30,436 bases of DNA from the IMG/VR virus record IMGVR_UViG_2693429557_000019; one strand, 5' to 3'. The position numbers and the translations under genes were made by a program. The notes below the pieces were generated by a model that saw nothing but the letters and a program-made list of their open reading frames with translations, searched no databases and was not told the origin of the DNA. This document shows, in pieces, positions 7,014 through 30,436 of this stretch (the stretch's first letter is position 1; every line of letters begins with the position of its first letter). Origin of the DNA: a virus (lineage: Duplodnaviria > Heunggongvirae > Uroviricota > Caudoviricetes).

Positions 7014-8432
7014 ATGACATACGCACTGATTGATAATTCAACTCTAACTGCAGTCCAAAGAATCGAGGGGAAAGTAAAAACAAGATCGAAGGACTCAGTA
7101 GATACAGACATAATAGCATTTGAGAACTATATACAGTCTATTTTGTTCTATGATCACGTTATCGCGGTTGATGATTATATTCCAGAGTACCGTGGGAGTA
7201 GGATTTCAAGTTTCAGAGAGATATTATTTCTTGATAAAGCACAATATGGGTTGGATGAAATTGAAAGTGAAGCAAAAAAAATATCTGATGCATTGAAACC
7301 TAAAATTCGTGGTGGAACATTTGTTAATGACGATTTTAAAAAACTAATTGAACTTCTTCAGACACATATCATATGTACATGGGACATTAGTTCAAGTGTT
7401 TATCATCTAACACTGAAGAACTTATCTGATGGAGGTAAGGAGTTTGAAAAATATGGTAACATTGCTGCTGCCATTTTTTCAGAACTGCGTGATGCTGCTG
7501 AGTCTGGTAATAGAACAAATGGCGATGTTGAACTTCTCGATCGATTTGGCAACCCTATTCGCAAGGGGTACAAAGTTCCCGGAGCAAAATGGGGGGATGG
7601 CACATCTGCTGGTGAAGCATCAGATGCAATCAAAGCATTCGTGGCTTCGCTTGTATGGCTGGCTAATCGGGCAGTATTTTATTCTCTCACAGCTAAGTAC
7701 CTTCAAGCAGATACTTTTTTATATCCATTACGTCAGGCGTATCAACAGACATATTTAAGCCAAAACTGTCAGTATGGTTTTGACTATGCTAAACATATTG
7801 TAGAAAACTTTTCCACTTCGTTAAGTCATGATCTCATTGATATTCATTCTGGTGGTAAAGCTGTAGCAACAGCAACTTCGCTTCCTTTATTTTCGGCATG
7901 GCTCGCAAAAGAAACTGGTGATCCAAGTTGTATTGTTGAAGCTGCTTATAACATAAGGGACAACAACGAATTTGTAAGGGCCCGTGAGAAAATGCGAGAA
8001 ATAAAGCGCTTGTTTGATGAAAATGAATTGCCTCAAGCTAATAAGTCAGTAAGAGCATTGCTTACTGAAGTATCGAAAGAATCAGATTATATTCGAACTA
8101 AGTATGGGCTCAAGACTAGACAAGGTGTACCTGTAACTAAGCTTGTACATGTATACAATACTGTTGCGGCTATTAATTCCCTTCCGAAACTACCGACCTT
8201 TAATTTTAAAGTTAAAGTTCCTGATTTCTTATATGATCTTAAAAAACCCAAGGGGTTTCGTGCTCTCTATCGAAATTTGACTAATGATCTTTCTACTGTG
8301 TGGTCGTTAGGAGAAGCTCGAGATATTCTTGGAAGTAAAGTTGTGATAGATAATCATGCAAGAATTTACAGTCCGAAGCATGAAGAACCGCGTTTCAAAA
8401 ACTCTCATTCCCCATATAAGAGCCCGATGTAG
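7014..8432 (+). CDS. Hypothetical 472-aa protein, AT-rich cargo gene at the FI/G (Z/fun) variable locus
   Basis: Long uninterrupted ORF on the strand opposite both flanking phage operons. Visibly lower GC than flanking phage DNA. Own promoter-like elements and RBS. I recognise no catalytic motif and no resemblance to a P2 protein. Confidence 0.8.
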   Translation: MTYALIDNSTLTAVQRIEGKVKTRSKDSVDTDIIAFENYIQSILFYDHVIAVDDYIPEYRGSRISSFREILFLDKAQYGLDEIESEAKKISDALKPKIRGGTFVNDDFKKLIELLQTHIICTWDISSSVYHLTLKNLSDGGKEFEKYGNIAAAIFSELRDAAESGNRTNGDVELLDRFGNPIRKGYKVPGAKWGDGTSAGEASDAIKAFVASLVWLANRAVFYSLTAKYLQADTFLYPLRQAYQQTYLSQNCQYGFDYAKHIVENFSTSLSHDLIDIHSGGKAVATATSLPLFSAWLAKETGDPSCIVEAAYNIRDNNEFVRAREKMREIKRLFDENELPQANKSVRALLTEVSKESDYIRTKYGLKTRQGVPVTKLVHVYNTVAAINSLPKLPTFNFKVKVPDFLYDLKKPKGFRALYRNLTNDLSTVWSLGEARDILGSKVVIDNHARIYSPKHEEPRFKNSHSPYKSPM

Positions 8433-18102: not shown

Positions 18103-19175
18103 TTACGCTCCCGGCTCTGCGGTCGCTTTAGCCGGTGTGGAGAAATCACCGACCTTAATTTTTTCCACCAGACAACCGGCGGCGTAGTCCTCCACCACGT
18201 AATCAATGTTCATTGACTCGTAGTTCTCCACGCGGTCGAGTTTCGGGTTTTCCACAATCACGCGGCGATGGCTGTCATCCATGTAGTAGATGGACAGGTT
18301 TTCCAGCTTCGTGATGAGCATCGCATCCGCCGGGAAGTACGGGACGCGTACCGCCGGCAGGTTACCGATGCGTTTCTGGCTGATGATGACGTCAGCGGCC
18401 AGCATCTCGCTGTTATCCTGCTCCTTGTTGACGATAGGGAAATACTTGTCCGCCAGTAGCTGACGCCCCACAATCACCACAAGGTCAGGGTCTTCCTGAT
18501 ACCAAGGTTCAATCAGGTTGTTGGTCGCATCCATCACCAGTGCATCGAGGCTTACATAATCACCGCCCTTACCCACGCGGATAACCTCAGAGGTGGTGCG
18601 GCCTTCCTCGTCAGTGACCTTGCTCATCACGCGCGCCGGGGCTTCATTCGGTATTTCTGCAGCCAGCCGACCGCCACATCCTGCAGCATCGGATTACTGT
18701 TGCGGTCAGAGGTTTCGGCACGCTTCACGCCGTTAAAACCGGCCATGATGAAATCAAGGGACTGGCGTTTGATAATGGCGTTACGGATACGGAGCTGGAA
18801 ATCCTGATAACGCGCCCACAGGTCAAGCGTTTTGTAGCGGATATAAAAATCGAAGTTAACCTGGTCGCATTCGTACTTGTTTGACGCCAGCTTCGAGAAG
18901 TCCTTCGGCTGACGCTCGGTGCCACCGGCGGTGTCGGTGGTGCTGGCGATGGAGCCGGTGACACCGATGCCAATTTTTTCCCCTTTCATTTCACTGACCG
19001 GCACAATGTTGATGCGGGTCAGAAAGTCAGAGGACTCCTGCATGGTGTTCATCAGGGTCTGGGTGACCGACGGTTCAACGGTGAATTTTTTCGACACATC
19101 ACCGGCGTCGATGCCGTTCAGCTCGGCAACACGGGACAGGTAAGCATTAAATTTAAAGCGGGTTTCCTGGCGCAT
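18103..19175 (-). pseudogene. N: Major capsid protein N, disrupted by a 1-nt frameshift (two ORFs of 182 aa and 175 aa)
   Basis: Two adjacent same-strand ORFs (18627..19175 and 18103..18630) in different frames together give about 357 aa, the size I recall for intact P2 gpN. The upstream ORF ends LQKYRMKPRRA-stop while the other frame reads NEAPARVMSKV across the same nucleotides, so a single missing base near plus-strand 18647..18648 accounts for the break. Confidence 0.75.
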
Positions 19176-23254: not shown

Positions 23255-23439
23255 CGCCCGCTTCATGGGGCGGTTTTAATGCAGTTGCATGAACACTCCA
23301 AGAGCACGCCAGCGCTAGTGATAACTAACAATAAAAGCGACTTCTGACGCATGCAAATCCATGCACATGATGGCATTTTTCATGATCTATGCGGTATGCT
23401 ATCCGCTTCAATTTTTAACACTTGTTAAGGGAACTAGAC

Positions 23440-24582
23440 ATGGACATTATTGATTTAAAATCTCAACTAGAAAATGAAGATAATGCCAAGAAAAGAGCAG
23501 AGTTGCTTGCTCAGCTAGAGGTGATAAAGCAAAACGCTGAAGAGCAAATTCGTGCTGAGCAAAAGGATGTGGATTTTGAGACCAAAGAATTTACCGTTGA
23601 GTTATTAGTTAATAAGTATCATAACGGATTAGAGGATGATACTAACGAACTCTTTGTTCCTGATTATCAAAGGGATTTTGTTTGGAGTGAAAAAAGACAA
23701 TCAAAATTGATAGAGTCTTTGATTTTGGGTTTTCCTATACCATATATATTTATAGCAGATGTTCTCTCCGAAGATCCCGATTTAGATGGGCGAATTGAGA
23801 TTGTTGATGGCTCACAACGAGTTAGGACTATACACGCTTTTATCCAAAATGAATTAGTTTTACAAGACCTGAAATCTTTAGACGTCCTTAATGGTTTCAA
23901 ATTCCAAGATTTACCATTATCACGTCAACGTCGTTTCATGAGAATTCCTGTCCGCGTTATAGAATTGAGTTCTAAATGCAATGAAGAAACCCGTAGAGAT
24001 CTTTTTGAGCGTATTAACTCTGGCAGCGATATATTGAAAGATATGGAAGTCCGTAAAGGATCAGAACTTGGTTCAACAAATTTATATACACAGGTTATTA
24101 AGCCATGCTCAACAATACCTAAATTTAAAGAATTAGCACCTTTATCTCAGACTAAAGAAAAACGAGATGAACGGTTAGAATTTACATTAAGATTCTTTGC
24201 CTACGTAGATAAGTACAAGAACTTTGATCATTCCGTACGGGATTTTCTAAATGACTATATGTCAGAAAATCGAGATATAGACGAAACTAAACAAAACTCA
24301 ATGAAACAAGAGTTTGCTAATGTTCTATCTTTTGTTGAAAACTATTTCCCAGCAGGATTCAAGAAAACTATTACTGCAAAATCTACACCTCGAGTTAGAT
24401 TCGAATCTCTCGCTGTTGGCGCAGCACTTGCATTACGTGAAGTCCCTGACCTTGTTCCCAAGAACTTAGATTGGCTAAGCTCAGAAGAATTCAAACGATT
24501 GACCACTTCCGACGGAGCTAATAGTCGCGTGAAGGTAATTGAACGAATTGAATATGTTCGGGATAAATTATTAGAGGATTAA
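23440..24582 (+). CDS. DUF262 / ParB-like domain protein (GmrS-like N-terminal domain, no recognisable HNH/DUF1524 nuclease), 380 aa
   Basis: Contains VPDYQRDFVWS and IVDGSQRVRTI, which fit the (I/V)PxYQRxxxW and DGQQR signatures of the DUF262 ParB/Srx-fold domain. N-terminal coiled-coil. AT-rich. Start taken at the ATG at 23440, 8 nt after an aaggga Shine-Dalgarno (the ORF track begins at a TTG at 23422). Confidence 0.85.
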   Translation: MDIIDLKSQLENEDNAKKRAELLAQLEVIKQNAEEQIRAEQKDVDFETKEFTVELLVNKYHNGLEDDTNELFVPDYQRDFVWSEKRQSKLIESLILGFPIPYIFIADVLSEDPDLDGRIEIVDGSQRVRTIHAFIQNELVLQDLKSLDVLNGFKFQDLPLSRQRRFMRIPVRVIELSSKCNEETRRDLFERINSGSDILKDMEVRKGSELGSTNLYTQVIKPCSTIPKFKELAPLSQTKEKRDERLEFTLRFFAYVDKYKNFDHSVRDFLNDYMSENRDIDETKQNSMKQEFANVLSFVENYFPAGFKKTITAKSTPRVRFESLAVGAALALREVPDLVPKNLDWLSSEEFKRLTTSDGANSRVKVIERIEYVRDKLLED

Positions 24583-24583
24583 C

Positions 24584-25264
24584 ATGGATCGTTTTCGTGA
24601 GGATTTTGACGAAAGGTCAGGAGAGATCTTGGCCTATTTGGATCTTTTGAAATTTATTGAGTATGCCGGTGCAGAACTGATATCAGCTGATGATAAAGAA
24701 CATAAGTTCTCCATTACTGCTCAATCACGAAAAACTCTAAAGGGAGCAGTATATATACTGTTATATAACCTCATTGAATCAACAATGAGAGAAGCTATCT
24801 GCCTTATTCATGAGACTATTTATGATAGAAACGTAGAATTTGACAAACTCAGGAAAAATCTCAGGTCAGAAATATTAAAAAGATTAAAAAATGAATCTGT
24901 AAATGTTGAAAGTTTAGTTAATCACCTTACCAAAGGTATATCTTGCGGTATATCTTATGGCACGTTCAACAAAAAGAAAATATTCTCAGGAAATATTGAT
25001 AGAGAGGAAATCAAAGAAAAATCGAAAATATATGGTTTTTCTACACATTCCGATTACACTCACACTAAACATGGTGAAAAATTAGCCACTGTTAAACAAC
25101 ATCGTAATGATTTATCTCATGGCAATGTATCATTTGCTGAGATTGGAAAAAATGTTTCATATCAGGACTTAGAGAATATTTCATTAGAAGTAATCGCCTA
25201 TCTTGATGCTATCGTGAATAATATAGAGCACTATATAAATAATAATGAATATTTAGAACAATAG
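24584..25264 (+). CDS. Putative HEPN-domain protein (Rx4H motif), 226 aa
   Basis: Translationally coupled to the upstream gene: TAA at 24580..24582 and ATG at 24584, with agagga 6-11 nt upstream. C-terminal region carries HRNDLSHG, fitting the HEPN R-x4-6-H motif. AT-rich. The HEPN call is motif-based inference only. Confidence 0.7.
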   Translation: MDRFREDFDERSGEILAYLDLLKFIEYAGAELISADDKEHKFSITAQSRKTLKGAVYILLYNLIESTMREAICLIHETIYDRNVEFDKLRKNLRSEILKRLKNESVNVESLVNHLTKGISCGISYGTFNKKKIFSGNIDREEIKEKSKIYGFSTHSDYTHTKHGEKLATVKQHRNDLSHGNVSFAEIGKNVSYQDLENISLEVIAYLDAIVNNIEHYINNNEYLEQ

Positions 25265-25270
25265 TTATAA

Positions 25271-25294
25271 GGCCTGTAAAGCAGGCCATTTTAT
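25271..25294. terminator. Candidate bidirectional terminator between the convergent HEPN gene and the methyltransferase gene
   Basis: Stem ggcctg / caggcc with a 5-nt loop, followed by attttat on the plus strand and an A/T-rich stretch on the other side. Sits exactly between the two convergent stop codons. Confidence 0.5.
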
Positions 25295-26319
25295 CATTCT
25301 AAATGGTTCTTGATTGATTGCCCAATTGCTTTTCCTAGTTCCACAGGAACAGCATTACCTATCATTTTCCCAATACTTCTTATAACAAACTTGTTTTTGT
25401 CTTCTACAAAAATATAATCCATCGGGAAAGTTTGCAATAAAGCAGCCTCTCTAAGAGAAATCGCTCTATGCTGTTCTGGATGTCCAAAACGCCCATTCCC
25501 GAAACCATAACAAAGAGTTGTAATTGTTGGACTTGGCTTATCCCAAGACATGCGCCCATATACACTAGCATACCCTTTACCGCTGGATTTCATATGACAA
25601 GCGGCAACCAACTCTTTCGGCCAGTCCTTCCATGTACCACCAGGAACAGAGTGTATAATTCTTTTTTTATTAATCGGATTTAATTTACTGGCTCTATGTA
25701 ATATATCATTTGGATCTGTTTGGCCATCTTCTAATGGAGGAAGATTTCCTATTGCATCTCTAACTGTTTTCAAAATAACATCGTCACGTTTTACTAACTC
25801 AATCGCCCCCAATTTTGAGGCCAACAATACATGACGGGAACGGTTTTGTGGGATTCCATATTCGACACAATCAATCTTAGACGCCCAAACATAATAGCCC
25901 AACTTTAACAATGAATTATAAAAATCATTATAAACTTTATGTTTAGTTACATCAGGAACGTTCTCCATTGTTACGATTTCTGGAGATACTTCGCGAATTA
26001 AACGTTCGAACTCATAAAGAAGAGGCCATTTTTTATCATCAGCCTTATCTTTTCCTTGAGTATATTTTGAAAAAGGTTGGCAAGGTGCGCATCCTGCCAA
26101 TACTTTTACAGACGCATCACCATAAAGCCTCAGCAGTTCCTCTTTTGTTACTTTAGCGATATCTTGCTCAATAAACTTAGATTTATTGTTTCTTTCATAG
26201 GGAAACCTACATTCCCCCTCAAGGTCAATGCCTGCAACGACATCAAGCCCCGCAAGCTGCAAACCATGAGTTAATCCGCCAGCACCACAAAAAAGGTCTA
26301 TCACCTTTACAGTCATCAC
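25294..26319 (-). CDS. DNA (cytosine-5)-methyltransferase, 341 aa
   Basis: Conserved C5-MTase motifs seen in the translation: FCGAGG (motif I, AdoMet binding), GCAPCQPFS (motif IV with catalytic Pro-Cys), ENVPDV (motif VI) and QNRSR (motif VIII). AT-rich. Confidence 0.9.
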   Translation of the reverse strand: MMTVKVIDLFCGAGGLTHGLQLAGLDVVAGIDLEGECRFPYERNNKSKFIEQDIAKVTKEELLRLYGDASVKVLAGCAPCQPFSKYTQGKDKADDKKWPLLYEFERLIREVSPEIVTMENVPDVTKHKVYNDFYNSLLKLGYYVWASKIDCVEYGIPQNRSRHVLLASKLGAIELVKRDDVILKTVRDAIGNLPPLEDGQTDPNDILHRASKLNPINKKRIIHSVPGGTWKDWPKELVAACHMKSSGKGYASVYGRMSWDKPSPTITTLCYGFGNGRFGHPEQHRAISLREAALLQTFPMDYIFVEDKNKFVIRSIGKMIGNAVPVELGKAIGQSIKNHLE

Positions 26320-26402: not shown

Positions 26403-27896
26403 TTAACGCTTCACTGAGTTTGACTCTAATACTGTTGAGAATCCCGACCACTCATCAGCGAGCGGGTAAGTGAATTTTTTCCCGTCATAATTTACGGTTG
26501 CCCCACGCGCCAGCACCTCAAGCTCCCATCGCTGCGGCCTGATACCGTTCTGAGCAAGGTCAACGCGGATACGGGTAATTTGCATTCGTTCCGACCGGGT
26601 CAGTCTGGCCGATGGCGCTATTTCATGCGGTTTTAACGGGCTTCCGTTTCTTTGCTGACGGTTTGGTCTTCTCAGTCCGTGTTTTAATGCACCTCTGAGC
26701 GCCCTCACAACCTCCGGGTCATTCCATTCGATAACACCGTCATCTACCAGATTAAGCACTGCTGCGGCGTGCTCAGAAGGTGTGGGAGCCGGTAACGAAG
26801 TATCACCACCAGTGAGCTTTCCACAGTTATTGACAGGACTCCGAGGCGCGGCGATGCCGCTTTTTAAAGTCAAAGGCTCAACGACCGGCACTTTCGGAAC
26901 AATGCGCCAGTCCGTCGTTCTGGTGATATGAATATGACGCGCGCCGAGATGCGGCGCGTAAATGCCGACCACTCTCTCGACTTCTTCCTCGTACTCGTTA
27001 ACTTCATCCGACGGACTACGGGCGACCCTGACAGTCTGACAATCGCGCGGGACATTTGCCCCACCCTGCGCGCTGATATACAGCGCAAAATCACCACTGT
27101 CTGCGGCGGCGCGTGCAGCCTCGACGCGCTCGTCAAACTCATCAGCAATGCTGACGCCGCGAGGCAATTTGCGTAGTTCACGGTAAGCCCCCATTGTCGG
27201 CAGGCCAACCGTTTTAAATTGCGGAATGCGCCACGTTGACGCCCATGCGGTAACAGCCGCGGCAGTATCTTTCAGCGGTCTGCCGCTATCGTTATCGAGC
27301 TGCCCATCCAGTGCATAGCCGTCGATATTTTTTGAGATGTATTTCGCGATATACCCCGCAGCACCGCCCCGATTAAGATGTTTTGCCTGAAAACGGTTTC
27401 GCGCAGCTCCTCTTTCGTCGCCATCCTCTTTGAGCGCGTAGCGACGCATGATTTCGATAATCTGGTTACGCTGGCGTGGATTACAAAAAAGCATCATATG
27501 CCAGTGCGGCGTTCCGTCGTGGTGTGGCTCGACGACTCGCAAACCGTAGACCTGTAAATCATTATCCTTGAATGCCGTGCGCATCAGGCTCCAGATACGG
27601 CAGAGATAACGCTGCGCATCCTTTGGATTAAATGCCTCATCGTTCCAGCCGTGATTTAGCTGGACGGTTTTACTTTCGCCTTTTCCAACCTGACGTGTCG
27701 GGTGATACTTTGACGGCGCGGTCAGCGTGATAAACATCCCCACATCACCTTCTGCGGCGGCGTAACGCTCAATACCGGCAATGGTGTTCATCAGCTCCAT
27801 CCGGCGAATTTCAGGATTAGAAATACTGCCCATCACCTTACTGATAAGGTCGATGCGCTCGCCTGTTTCCCTGTTTTCGAGATCACACGATTTAAG
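26403..27896 (-). pseudogene. A: Replication initiation protein A (rolling-circle HUH endonuclease), 5'-truncated at the IS21-family junction
   Basis: ORF carries the HUH motif (TPHWHMMLF) and a Tyr/Lys motif (YIAKYISKN) of Rep-type nickases. It is 526 aa against about 761 aa that I recall for P2 gpA. The first roughly 28 codons of the ORF-track ORF (to 27983) are read through IS-end tandem repeats and are not genuine gene A sequence. Junction placed near 27897 from memory of the P2 gpA sequence. Confidence 0.7.
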
Positions 27897-27910
27897 ATGC
27901 AAAATGGCAT

Positions 27911-28025
27911 CTGAATCGATCGCAGTTTGGCATTCGAATCGATCATGATTTGGCATCCATCTCCGATCACAGTTTGGCATCACAATCGATCACGATTTGG
28001 CATACTTCCGATCATTGATTGGAAT
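27911..28025. repeat. Five tandem 22-24 bp direct repeats (consensus about cgatcaNNRtttggcat), probable multiple terminal repeats of the IS21-family left end
   Basis: Units end in ttggcat at 27933, 27956, 27980 and 28003, and in ttggaat at 28025. A diverged sixth copy (aaaatggcat) ends at 27910. The array lies immediately upstream of istA. Confidence 0.6.
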
Positions 28026-28098
28026 TCGCCAGTCACTCCGGGAATTAACTCTTTTCACCACAGTCTCCATTGCCGTGTTTAAACCAGTGGAGACGTCA

Positions 28099-29664
28099 AT
28101 GTCCAAAAAGAGAAAATCCAGGAGCACTATGGAAACTTGTTTTAAGATCCTTCAGCTCAAGTTCGATAAGAAGCTGACTAACCGTTGTATCGGACTGACG
28201 TTACACATCAGCGCCTCAACCGTTTTTGAGGTTCTTGCCCGCTTCAAAGCCTCTTCTCTGTCATGGCCATTACCTGCGGATATATCCCATGACACGCTGG
28301 AGAAACTCATTTTCCCGCCCAAAGACACCTCTGCGTCAGAGCTTGTTATGCCTGACATGCTGTACTTCGATACGGAAATGAGAAAACCTGGCGTGACGCG
28401 CCAACTGTTGTGGATGGAATACAAGGCACAGGCGGGTGACAAAGCGATGGGATACTCACACTTCTGCCGTTGCTACCGGAAGTGGAAAAAAACGCGACGC
28501 CTCTCCATGCGACAGGAGCATCGTGCTGGCGAAAAGCTCTTTATCGACTTCTGTGGTCCTACGGTCCCTGTTATTAATCCGGACACCGGAGAGATACGCC
28601 GCGTGGCAATCTTCGTGGCTGTAATGGGGGCGTCCAACTATACCTATGTTGAAGCGTGCGAAGGTCAGGACATGATGTCATGGTTAAATGCCCACAGCCG
28701 TTGCCTGACCTTCCTGGGCGGCGTACCGAAGCTGCTCATCCCCGATAACCTCAGAAGCGCAGTGAAAAAAGCCGATCGCTATGAGCCTGTCATCAACGAC
28801 AGTTATCAGGCGCTGGCTGAGCACTATGGCACGGTTATTATCCCGGCCCGCCCGCGCAAACCTAAAGATAAACCAAAAGCAGAAAACGGCGTCCTCATCG
28901 TCGAGCGATGGCTTCTTGCCCGCATCCGTAATGAAACCTTCCACACGCTCAGGGCGCTGAATGCACGCCTTCGGGAGTTGCTGACGGACATGAATAACCG
29001 ACCAATGAAGGGATACGGTAATCAAACCCGCGCAGAACGCTTCCGCATGCTGGATGCACCAGCACTCTCTCCGCTGCCTCTGGAGCCTTATGAATACACG
29101 GAATACAAAGCCGTGAAGGTTGGCCCTGACTACCACGTTGAATATGCCCGTCACTGGTACTCCGTTCCACACGAACTGGTCGGTCAGCGTCTGTCACTGA
29201 AGGTGGGGCAGTCGGTGGTACAGCTCTGGCACAAGGGGCAGTGTGTGGCGCAACATCCGCGCAGCACACATGAATATAAACACACAACCAATCCGCTTCA
29301 CATGCCAGAACGCCACCGGCGGCATGGGACATGGACACCGGAACGCCTTATCGAGCAGGGAAACCGTACAGGTCCGTCCACAGGCCGGGTGGTTGAATCC
29401 ATGCTGAAAGCCAAACCCCATCCGGAGCTGGCTTACCGTGCAGTCCTGGGTCTGCTGGCACTTCAGAAAAAATACGGCCCGGAACGGCTGGAAAAGGCCT
29501 GTTACGTTGCCCTGCACTATAACGCCCCGGACAGACGCTTTATCGACAATCTGCTGCGTCATCATCGGGATAACGTTGAGCTTCCGTTATCCCGCCAGGG
29601 CGAACAACATCCGGCATATGCTTCAGAGCATGAAAACCTGCGTGGTCCTGGCTACTACCACTGA
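28099..29664 (+). CDS. istA: IS21-family transposase IstA (DDE), about 521 aa
   Basis: N-terminal basic/HTH-like region. Candidate DDE residues in FIDFCG, LLIPDN and AENGVLIVERW. Followed 16 nt later by istB. Start taken at the first ATG (MSKKRKS) of the ORF-track ORF, which begins at a TTG at 27997. Confidence 0.85.
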   Translation: MSKKRKSRSTMETCFKILQLKFDKKLTNRCIGLTLHISASTVFEVLARFKASSLSWPLPADISHDTLEKLIFPPKDTSASELVMPDMLYFDTEMRKPGVTRQLLWMEYKAQAGDKAMGYSHFCRCYRKWKKTRRLSMRQEHRAGEKLFIDFCGPTVPVINPDTGEIRRVAIFVAVMGASNYTYVEACEGQDMMSWLNAHSRCLTFLGGVPKLLIPDNLRSAVKKADRYEPVINDSYQALAEHYGTVIIPARPRKPKDKPKAENGVLIVERWLLARIRNETFHTLRALNARLRELLTDMNNRPMKGYGNQTRAERFRMLDAPALSPLPLEPYEYTEYKAVKVGPDYHVEYARHWYSVPHELVGQRLSLKVGQSVVQLWHKGQCVAQHPRSTHEYKHTTNPLHMPERHRRHGTWTPERLIEQGNRTGPSTGRVVESMLKAKPHPELAYRAVLGLLALQKKYGPERLEKACYVALHYNAPDRRFIDNLLRHHRDNVELPLSRQGEQHPAYASEHENLRGPGYYH

Positions 29665-29680
29665 CAGAAGGAACAACCGT

Positions 29681-30436
29681 ATGAGTGATAATCTGTTAAA
29701 CAAACTGACCCAACTGAAACTCCCGGCGATGGCCGGGAGCCTGATACGGCAACGGGAAACGCCTCAGACTTACGACGAACTGTCGTTCGAGGAAAGGCTG
29801 ACACTGCTGGTTGATGACGAGCTTCTGAGCAGAGAAAACAGTCGTGTGGCACGGTTGAGAAAAAATGCCTGCCTGAAATATCAGGCAACACCGGAAGGGC
29901 TGCGTTATCCGGCCTCAAGAGGTCTGCGGGCTGAACAGATGAGGGAACTGCTGAACGGCCACTACATAATCCACAGGAAAAACCTACTGATAACCGGTCC
30001 GACAGGATGCGGTAAGAGCTGGATAGCCAATGCGCTGGGCGAACAGGCATGTCGACAGAAATACAGCGTCCGGTACTGTAGAACCGGGCGATTACTGGAA
30101 CAGTTGGCTCAGGGACGTGTTGATGGCAGTTGGCTGAAATATCTGAAACAGTTGCAAAAAATACAGGTTCTAATCCTGGACGATCTGGGGCTGGAACAGT
30201 TAAGTAACGCCCAGTGTAATGACCTTCTGGAGATCACAGAGGATCGTTACGGACAAAGCAGCACGATAGTGGTAAGCCAGTTCCCGGTAGATAAATGGCA
30301 TGGTCTGATGGAGAACCCAACAACAGCAGATGCCATCCTGGACAGACTGGTACATAACTCACACAGAGTGGTCCTTCAGGGAGAGTCCCTGAGGAAAAAT
30401 CCCCCGACAGTGGAAAGCAGCGAAAAAACGAGTTAA
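29681..30436 (+). CDS. istB: IS21-family ATP-binding helper protein IstB, 251 aa
   Basis: Walker A motif GPTGCGKS and Walker B-like VLILDDLG. Start ATG at 29681 preceded by gaaggaa. Stop TAA is the last 3 nt of the window. Confidence 0.9.
   Translation: MSDNLLNKLTQLKLPAMAGSLIRQRETPQTYDELSFEERLTLLVDDELLSRENSRVARLRKNACLKYQATPEGLRYPASRGLRAEQMRELLNGHYIIHRKNLLITGPTGCGKSWIANALGEQACRQKYSVRYCRTGRLLEQLAQGRVDGSWLKYLKQLQKIQVLILDDLGLEQLSNAQCNDLLEITEDRYGQSSTIVVSQFPVDKWHGLMENPTTADAILDRLVHNSHRVVLQGESLRKNPPTVESSEKTS

Follow-up and report, generated by a model that had tools for sequence, protein, structure and literature searches.

Insertion sequences of the IS21 family carry inverted repeats composed of multiple direct repeats (L1/L2 at the left end, R1/R2 at the right end), which are bound by the HTH domains of the transposase IstA, and two such repeats are needed for integration (PMC10122671, PMC11208146). 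To integrate a pre-cleaved end, IstA requires two complete repeats, where its HTH domains bind cooperatively and a tetramer pairs the two ends, before strand transfer is activated by IstB (PMC10122671, PMC11208146). One family member, ISSso4, is among the 12 IS types present in Shigella sonnei 53G, and IS expansion as well as IS-mediated rearrangement have been documented in Shigella (PMC7373316). The best characterized relatives for comparison, IS21 from plasmid R68.45 and IS5376, share with ISSso4 the gene order istA then istB, the termini 5'-TG...CA-3' and multi-repeat ends (L1/L2(/L3), R1/R2). They differ in that IS21 and IS5376 usually have two or three units at the left end, whereas ISSso4 has a tip plus five units on the left and two to three on the right, and in that their target-site duplications are commonly 5 bp long, compared with 5 to 7 bp in the ISSso4 copies we examined. 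The phage gene considered here encodes a relative of P2 gpA, the HUH rolling-circle initiator (PF05840).

We analyzed a stretch of 30,436 nucleotides of caudoviral DNA (IMG/VR record IMGVR_UViG_2693429557_000019), called the window below. A preliminary description of it had proposed that an IS21-family element abuts a 5'-truncated replication gene A through an array of terminal repeats, and our analysis supports this main interpretation as essentially right. We are highly confident that the 150-bp feature is the left terminal inverted-repeat region of ISSso4 and that it is fused to gene A of a P2-like S. sonnei prophage at codon 269. The two parts meet at 27897/27898, within the interval 27880-28030 in which the IS boundary had been expected: phage sequence extends through 27897, and the IS begins at 27898 with the T of the terminal 5'-TG. 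A megablast search against phage genomes showed that phage homology ends at 27897 (query position 1598), and in a separate search of 5,426 complete E. coli genomes the ISSso4 matches started at 27898 (query position 199). The gene A region matched 86 peduovirus-type records with up to about 97.5% identity, none of them extending past 27897. At this point intact gene A goes on with ...TTAAGAAATTCCAG (in a longer stretch, ...TTAAGAAATTCCAGATTTGCC), and the window instead reads ...TTAAGA followed by TGCAAAATGG (longer, by TGCAAAATGGCAT). The 5,426 complete E. coli genomes did not contain the gene A-IS junction, and the exact junction had no match in IMG/VR or in the GTDB species representatives. 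The insertion site in gene A is private to one assembly.

We also considered a longer IS end, as IS variants with 96% identity match from approximately 15 bases to the left of the junction, and rejected it. The match of the variant concerned (L003) is read as a chance likeness of two target sites that both end in TAAGA, and the IS starts with TGCAAAATGG in all copies.

The first 2,539 of the 2,638 bp of ISSso4 lie at 27898-30436 (plus strand) and are 100% identical to copies annotated in RefSeq. The last 99 bp, with the right terminal repeats, are beyond the window, which ends with the stop codon of istB. The name rests on the RefSeq annotation of copies with 99.9-100% identity ('IS21-like element ISSso4 family transposase' and 'helper ATPase IstB'). 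Hundreds of E. coli and Shigella genomes have copies up to 100% identical, located on chromosomes and plasmids in unrelated contexts. From 12 complete copies we set the length of ISSso4 to 2,638 bp (one more, 2,639 bp, in variant L003, which has 96% identity) and its ends to TGCAAAATGGCAT... and ...GCGGAATACGCA. The termini are 5'-TG...CA-3', with TG at 27898-27899 of the window and CA in the source contig and in 11 other copies, and both ends carry multiple direct repeats, the left a tip plus five units and the right two full units and one degenerate unit in inverted orientation. Copies that RefSeq annotates as ISSso4 have the same ends, length and repeat array and are up to 100% identical over 2,539 bp, and the element itself is no different from other copies; in the public contig, the window copy alone lacks a target-site duplication.

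The assignment of the element to the IS21 family, made earlier from the letters, was confirmed by both of its proteins when scored against the NCBIfam cut-offs. The istA transposase gene (28099-29664, plus strand) scored 287 bits with NF033546 (cut-off 160), and its product matched the Pfam domains rve and Mu-transpos_C_2, rve at 32.2 bits being just below its cut-off of 32.6. The complete gene for the AAA+ helper ATPase IstB (29681-30436, plus strand, 251 aa plus stop) scored 252 bits with NF038214 (cut-off 200) and matched Pfam IstB_IS21 with E = 5e-60; Walker A (GPTGCGKS) and Walker B (ILDD) motifs are readable in the protein. There are two in-frame ATG codons at the start of istA, at 28099 (521 aa) and at 28129 (511 aa, the form in the RefSeq annotation). 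They are 10 codons apart (MSKKRKSRST-METCF...), an arrangement reminiscent of the IS21 transposase/cointegrase pair. In IS21, Schmid et al. reportedly described in 1998 that the istA transposase and cointegrase are made from in-frame starts a few codons apart.

All 11 other ISSso4 copies (11/11) were flanked by a target-site duplication, of 5 bp in three copies, 6 bp in four copies and 7 bp at three sites (lengths from copies L001, L003, L009 and L014-L023). Hence, the duplication length of ISSso4 appears to vary between 5 and 7 bp. The IS21 family is usually quoted with a 5-bp duplication. No target-site consensus was apparent among the 11 sites. Comparison among copies yielded a single SNP informative for tracing a crossover, at IS position 2509.

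The tandem repeats reported at 27880-28030 were recovered both by Tandem Repeats Finder, which returned two arrays, one of period 23 at 27905-28003 and one of period 47 at 27917-28028, and by a motif scan. The region reads ...gagatcacacgatttaaga up to the junction and then tgcaaaatggcat ctgaat cgatcgcagtttggcat tcgaat cgatcatgatttggcat ccatctc cgatcacagtttggcat cacaat cgatcacgatttggcat acttc cgatcattgattggaat tcgcc... The tip of the left terminal inverted repeat, TGCAAAATGGCAT (27898-27910, plus strand), consists of the terminal TG and a partial repeat unit according to the unit alignment; this tip is the start of every ISSso4 copy, immediately 3' of the target-site duplication. It is followed by five direct repeats of the 17-bp unit CGATCRNNRTTTGGCAT within 27917-28025 (plus strand), located at 27917-27933, 27940-27956, 27964-27980, 27987-28003 and 28009-28025, with starts spaced by 23, 24, 23 and 22 bp. 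The fifth is degenerate and has four mismatches to the consensus. Allowing up to one mismatch, the CGATCRNNRTTTGGCAT pattern matches four times in the window, where shuffled sequence would give 0.02 matches, and the rest of the 30 kb has none, so the array is real rather than a product of chance. At the right end of ISSso4 the motif is found on the opposite strand, at IS positions 2604-2620 and 2580-2596 (CGATCACGGATTGGCAT and CGATCAGCGATTCGCAT, plus a degenerate third unit), showing that the units are inverted between the two ends. The repeats were also identical in ISSso4 copies at unrelated loci, which together with their inversion at the right end bears out the proposal that they form the left end of an IS21-family element.

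The five repeats at 27917-28025 are putative IstA binding sites of the left end. This is the best-supported reading of the ISSso4 array by analogy, because the position, polarity and spacing of approximately two helical turns are the same as in the repeats of the IS21 family. The IS tip and istA are 200 bp apart and the array takes up most of this distance, so we speculate that it probably overlaps the istA promoter. For a promoter that could drive the gene A fragment from the IS end, a consensus scan of 27700-28250 gave no sigma-70-like match, which is weak evidence. On the phage side of the junction, GATCACACGATTT at 27881-27893 is native gene A and not part of the IS; it is present in the intact gene A of S. 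sonnei 53G, and its equivalent in phage vB_EcoM-12474II reads GGTCACACGATTT. This native sequence adjoining the insertion point resembles the IS repeat unit CGATCACGATTT..., which may explain why a sixth repeat had been counted. The likeness is probably due to chance, judging from 10 other target sites at which it is not seen.

The gene A part of the junction is a 3' fragment of a P2-type gene (26403-27897, minus strand), identified by DNA identity, BLASTP and Pfam, that corresponds to codons 269-765 of the 765-aa S. sonnei 53G gene. The open reading frame containing it (26403-27983, minus strand) encodes 526 aa and begins with MMPNCDRRWMPNHDR. Its first 29 codons, MMPNCDRRWMPNHDRFECQTAIDSDAILH (27898-27983, minus strand), are a leader derived from the IS, as seen from the ORF list and the gpA alignment. 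Aligning the protein with gpA, as had been suggested, mapped the breakpoint to gpA residue 269 and ORF residue 30: residues 30-526 align to residues 269-765 of an intact 768-aa peduovirus gpA with 96% identity in BLASTP. The Pfam profile Phage_GPA was matched only at positions 133-321 of 321, with positions 1-132 unmatched; as a yardstick for a functional full-length gpA we used a length of about 761-768 aa and a match to the whole profile, and the fragment falls short of it. Gene A has thus lost codons 1-268, about a third of its length. The earlier reading of a shortened gene holds, and its estimate of about 235 missing residues was too small because the open reading frame is padded with 29 codons of IS DNA. 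Likewise, the apparent N-terminus does originate from the IS, and it spans the tip and three to four units rather than five or six repeats.

The truncated product retains the HUH motif (PHWHMML) and the YxxxY tyrosines (GYIAKYISK), both conserved in the gpA alignment, in agreement with the claim that gene A is 5'-truncated yet keeps its HUH and catalytic tyrosine motifs. We take the HWH and YIAKY residues of the fragment to be catalytic, as in P2 A. Compared with P2 gpA, the fragment has these motifs and lacks the first 268 residues, and it is separated from the early operon. The promoter of the P2 early operon is Pe, from which the gene A fragment is detached. It is a reasonable inference that the fragment, with its catalytic motifs kept, has lost the replication function. 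In the public annotation the gene starts at the ATG at 27956 and encodes 517 aa (CSQ97412.1, 'replication protein A [Shigella sonnei]', found on one contig only). Exact protein look-ups of the starts at 27983, 27980 and 27830 returned no record, and the form starting at ATG 27956 is the only one on record.

We compared the locus with intact relatives of the prophage. Over 13,314 bp left of 27897, the window matches the P2-like prophage of S. sonnei 53G with 100% identity. That prophage has an uninterrupted gene A of 765 aa, after which come small early ORFs, B, cox, C, int and then cpxP/cpxRA. Because this 100% identical prophage has an intact gene A, the lesion is recent and lineage-specific. 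In intact copies of the prophage, a 3.5-kb stretch next to gene A contains B, cox, C and int, and these genes are absent from the window, just as the preliminary description had stated for the early region. IS-driven decay of prophages is familiar from Shigella, and the same cpxP prophage has been hit repeatedly; the site in gene A differs in being private to one assembly. In other S. sonnei assemblies this cpxP-adjacent P2-like prophage carries further lesions. One copy (L009) has ISSso4 in the portal gene with the duplication CTTTA, two (L007 and L010) have IS630-family elements that replace the late region and the integrase side, and a fourth (L006) has an internal deletion by which a 564-aa A fragment adjoins int. 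The four lesions are independent of one another.

Contig CXDR01000004.1 of the S. sonnei assembly GCA_001260135.1 shares 14,034 bp with the window at 100% identity, which allowed us to look at the far side of the IS. In this contig the IS is complete and its right end abuts AATGGGAATAAAACG..., followed by yecR, azuC, yecJ, ftnB, araFGH and otsBA. Inspection beyond the window, proposed earlier as a check, thus located the right end (IRR), and neither the rest of gene A nor a target-site duplication is present there. The flanks read ...GATTTAAGA (...TTTAAGA) on the left and AATGGGAAT... (AATGGGA...) on the right, with no duplication at lengths of 2-8 in the contig. A short duplication of 4-8 bp is a feature of the IS21 family that the 11 other ISSso4 copies show, and its absence from this copy marks a secondary event or a mis-assembly. 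Another complete chromosome of S. sonnei type (L018) has ISSso4 between ftnA and yecR, with the duplication AATGGG and an identical right flank, and the ftnA-yecR site is empty in E. coli genomes. Since the contig copy has no duplication and its right junction matches the ftnA-yecR copy of L018, its two ends come from different insertion sites: the copy combines the left junction of an insertion into gene A with the right junction of the ftnA-yecR copy. Linkage across ISSso4 is insecure because the contig is from a fragmented draft and the 2.6-kb IS is present in multiple copies. The preliminary description had left open whether the IS was 'inserted into, or deleting' gene A, and the contig shows neither a clean insertion nor an adjacent deletion.

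Several explanations could account for these hybrid flanks. We see an even chance that the contig reflects a true rearrangement, in which ISSso4 entered gene A and a large inversion then split the prophage, either by homologous recombination with the ftnA-yecR copy or by intramolecular integration of the abutted-ends junction of a tandem (ISSso4)2. Integration of an abutted-ends tandem junction has been described for replicon fusion by IS21. The 5' part of A together with B, cox, C and int would then reside elsewhere beside another ISSso4 copy, joined to the ftnA side. Such a rearrangement is consistent with a contig that runs unbroken from the prophage through a complete 2,638-bp IS into yecR-otsA, with hybrid flanks lacking a duplication where 11/11 other copies have one, and with a right junction identical to that in L018; it would also fit with other independent IS lesions in the same prophage (L007, L009 and L010) and with IS-mediated rearrangements being well known in Shigella (PMC7373316). 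It demands, however, that two events, or one involving a tandem dimer, took place on the terminal branch leading to one isolate, with the junction protein found on one contig only, and position 2509 is G in this copy compared with T in the yecR copy of L018. In a K-12-like arrangement, moreover, the join would be of the deletion type and lethal, so that the yecR locus would have to be inverted in S. sonnei; the gene order of the prophage and yecR loci is taken here from the K-12 map. The reciprocal junction predicted by a rearrangement was not found in searches of low power, since the collections include few S. sonnei isolates and draft assemblies are interrupted wherever an IS copy lies: the DNA junction was absent from the GTDB representatives and the JGI metagenomes, and the reciprocal fusion proteins predicted for duplications of 4-8 bp had no record. 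The stronger statement that the hybrid flanks are real, and that a large inversion, marked by a newly transposed ISSso4 end in gene A and by the ftnA-yecR copy, split the prophage of one S. sonnei isolate into two distant halves, has in our judgment slightly less than an even chance of being true. A plain insertion into gene A with a 5-7 bp duplication is a realistic possibility that we nevertheless regard as somewhat improbable. The contig would then be chimeric, leaving a collapsed IS at the yecR copy, and the rest of gene A would lie directly beyond the IS. The contig of 75,991 bp belongs to a fragmented draft assembly, short reads cannot span a multi-copy IS of 2.6 kb that has at least three copies in one S. 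sonnei genome, and at every variable site the IS of the contig carries the majority allele, the outcome expected if gaps were filled from pooled reads. A single insertion is also the most parsimonious event. Against it, the read-through protein joining gpA 1-269 to the IRR (for duplications of 4-8 bp) was absent from a collection of 15 billion proteins that does include the 3' fragment from this assembly, a weak absence in that the partner contig may end before a stop codon.

Hybrid flanks without a duplication are also the signature of an adjacent deletion, in which a resident IS removed DNA from its left end up to codon 268, and the genome would no longer contain the 5' part of A or the early region. 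Against this, the prophage is located beside cpxP/cpxRA and yecR in the otsBA-araFGH region in other genomes of S. sonnei and E. coli, and a deletion joining the two would take much of the chromosome with it, essential genes included. On the K-12 map the prophage (cpxP) and yecR loci are approximately 2 Mb apart. As the two loci are in different chromosomal regions, a deletion of this kind is very unlikely. Least probable of all, to the point of being negligible, is that the repeats are phage-borne, either as iterons of an origin or as the divergent N-terminus of an intact gene A from a P2 relative. P2-type phages do carry their origin inside gene A, and the native GATCACACGATTT beside the junction has the likeness to a repeat unit described above. 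However, the array is unchanged at unrelated ISSso4 sites, always directly after the target duplication, and the 86 phage records match gene A only to 27897. Phage iterons and a divergent intact N-terminus were rejected as candidates, given that intact copies of the prophage have no repeats and an ordinary gene A at this position.

The junction itself is best explained by transfer of the left end of ISSso4 into gene A. By analogy with IS21 and IS5376, the HTH domains of IstA would bind the repeats cooperatively and form a synaptic tetramer, and IstB would deliver the target. What remains of A is separated from the early promoter and from the B, cox, C and int genes, and for this reason neither replication nor excision is expected of this piece of the prophage. 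This is ordinary prophage decay by an IS, and both the element and the phenomenon are already known: disruption of prophages by IS elements has been described before, and the terminal-repeat architecture is a textbook hallmark of the IS21 family. For annotation, the 'replication protein A' of 517 or 526 aa is a pseudogene fragment with an N-terminus made of IS DNA, and the apparent provirus should be scored as a defective remnant because it ends inside the IS, without the early region. The locus also illustrates that unrelated loci may become linked in contigs running through a multi-copy IS. A real rearrangement would be one more case of IS-driven reshuffling and prophage decay in Shigella sonnei, and if the inversion is true, a caught-in-the-act example of IS21-family elements reshaping Shigella chromosomes. 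Beyond correct annotation, the locus has little importance.

Other parts of the window deserve mention. The P2-type major capsid gene N (18103-19175, minus strand) is divided into ORFs of 175 aa and 182 aa by a 1-nt deletion at about 18648/18649. In a near-identical prophage (L004) gene N is intact at 357 aa, and S. sonnei 53G, which is 100% identical to the window there, carries the frameshift. Because the frameshift is common to the window and S. sonnei 53G, the prophage was probably already defective before the IS event.

Cargo genes are present at 23422-26319, the position beside gene A that is occupied by tin/old in P2. They include a GmrSD_N/DUF262 protein, which PADLOC matched to NsnA (E = 1.7e-54) and PD-T4-2_A (E = 2.5e-35), followed by a HEPN protein (MAE_28990 / RiboL-PSP types) and a convergent gene for a C-5 cytosine methyltransferase. 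The region looks like a phage-carried hotspot for anti-phage defence. A 472-aa ORF at 7014-8432 (plus strand), on the strand opposite to the surrounding tail genes, had no Pfam or PADLOC match and may be another orphan cargo gene. Finally, the window starts at an ORF for an Ogr/Delta zinc-finger protein (1-282) and ends on the istB stop codon (30436), and the public contig extends about 21 kb and 24 kb past its two ends. The window looks like a provirus call that was trimmed to gene boundaries, with the IS wrongly counted as the last genes.
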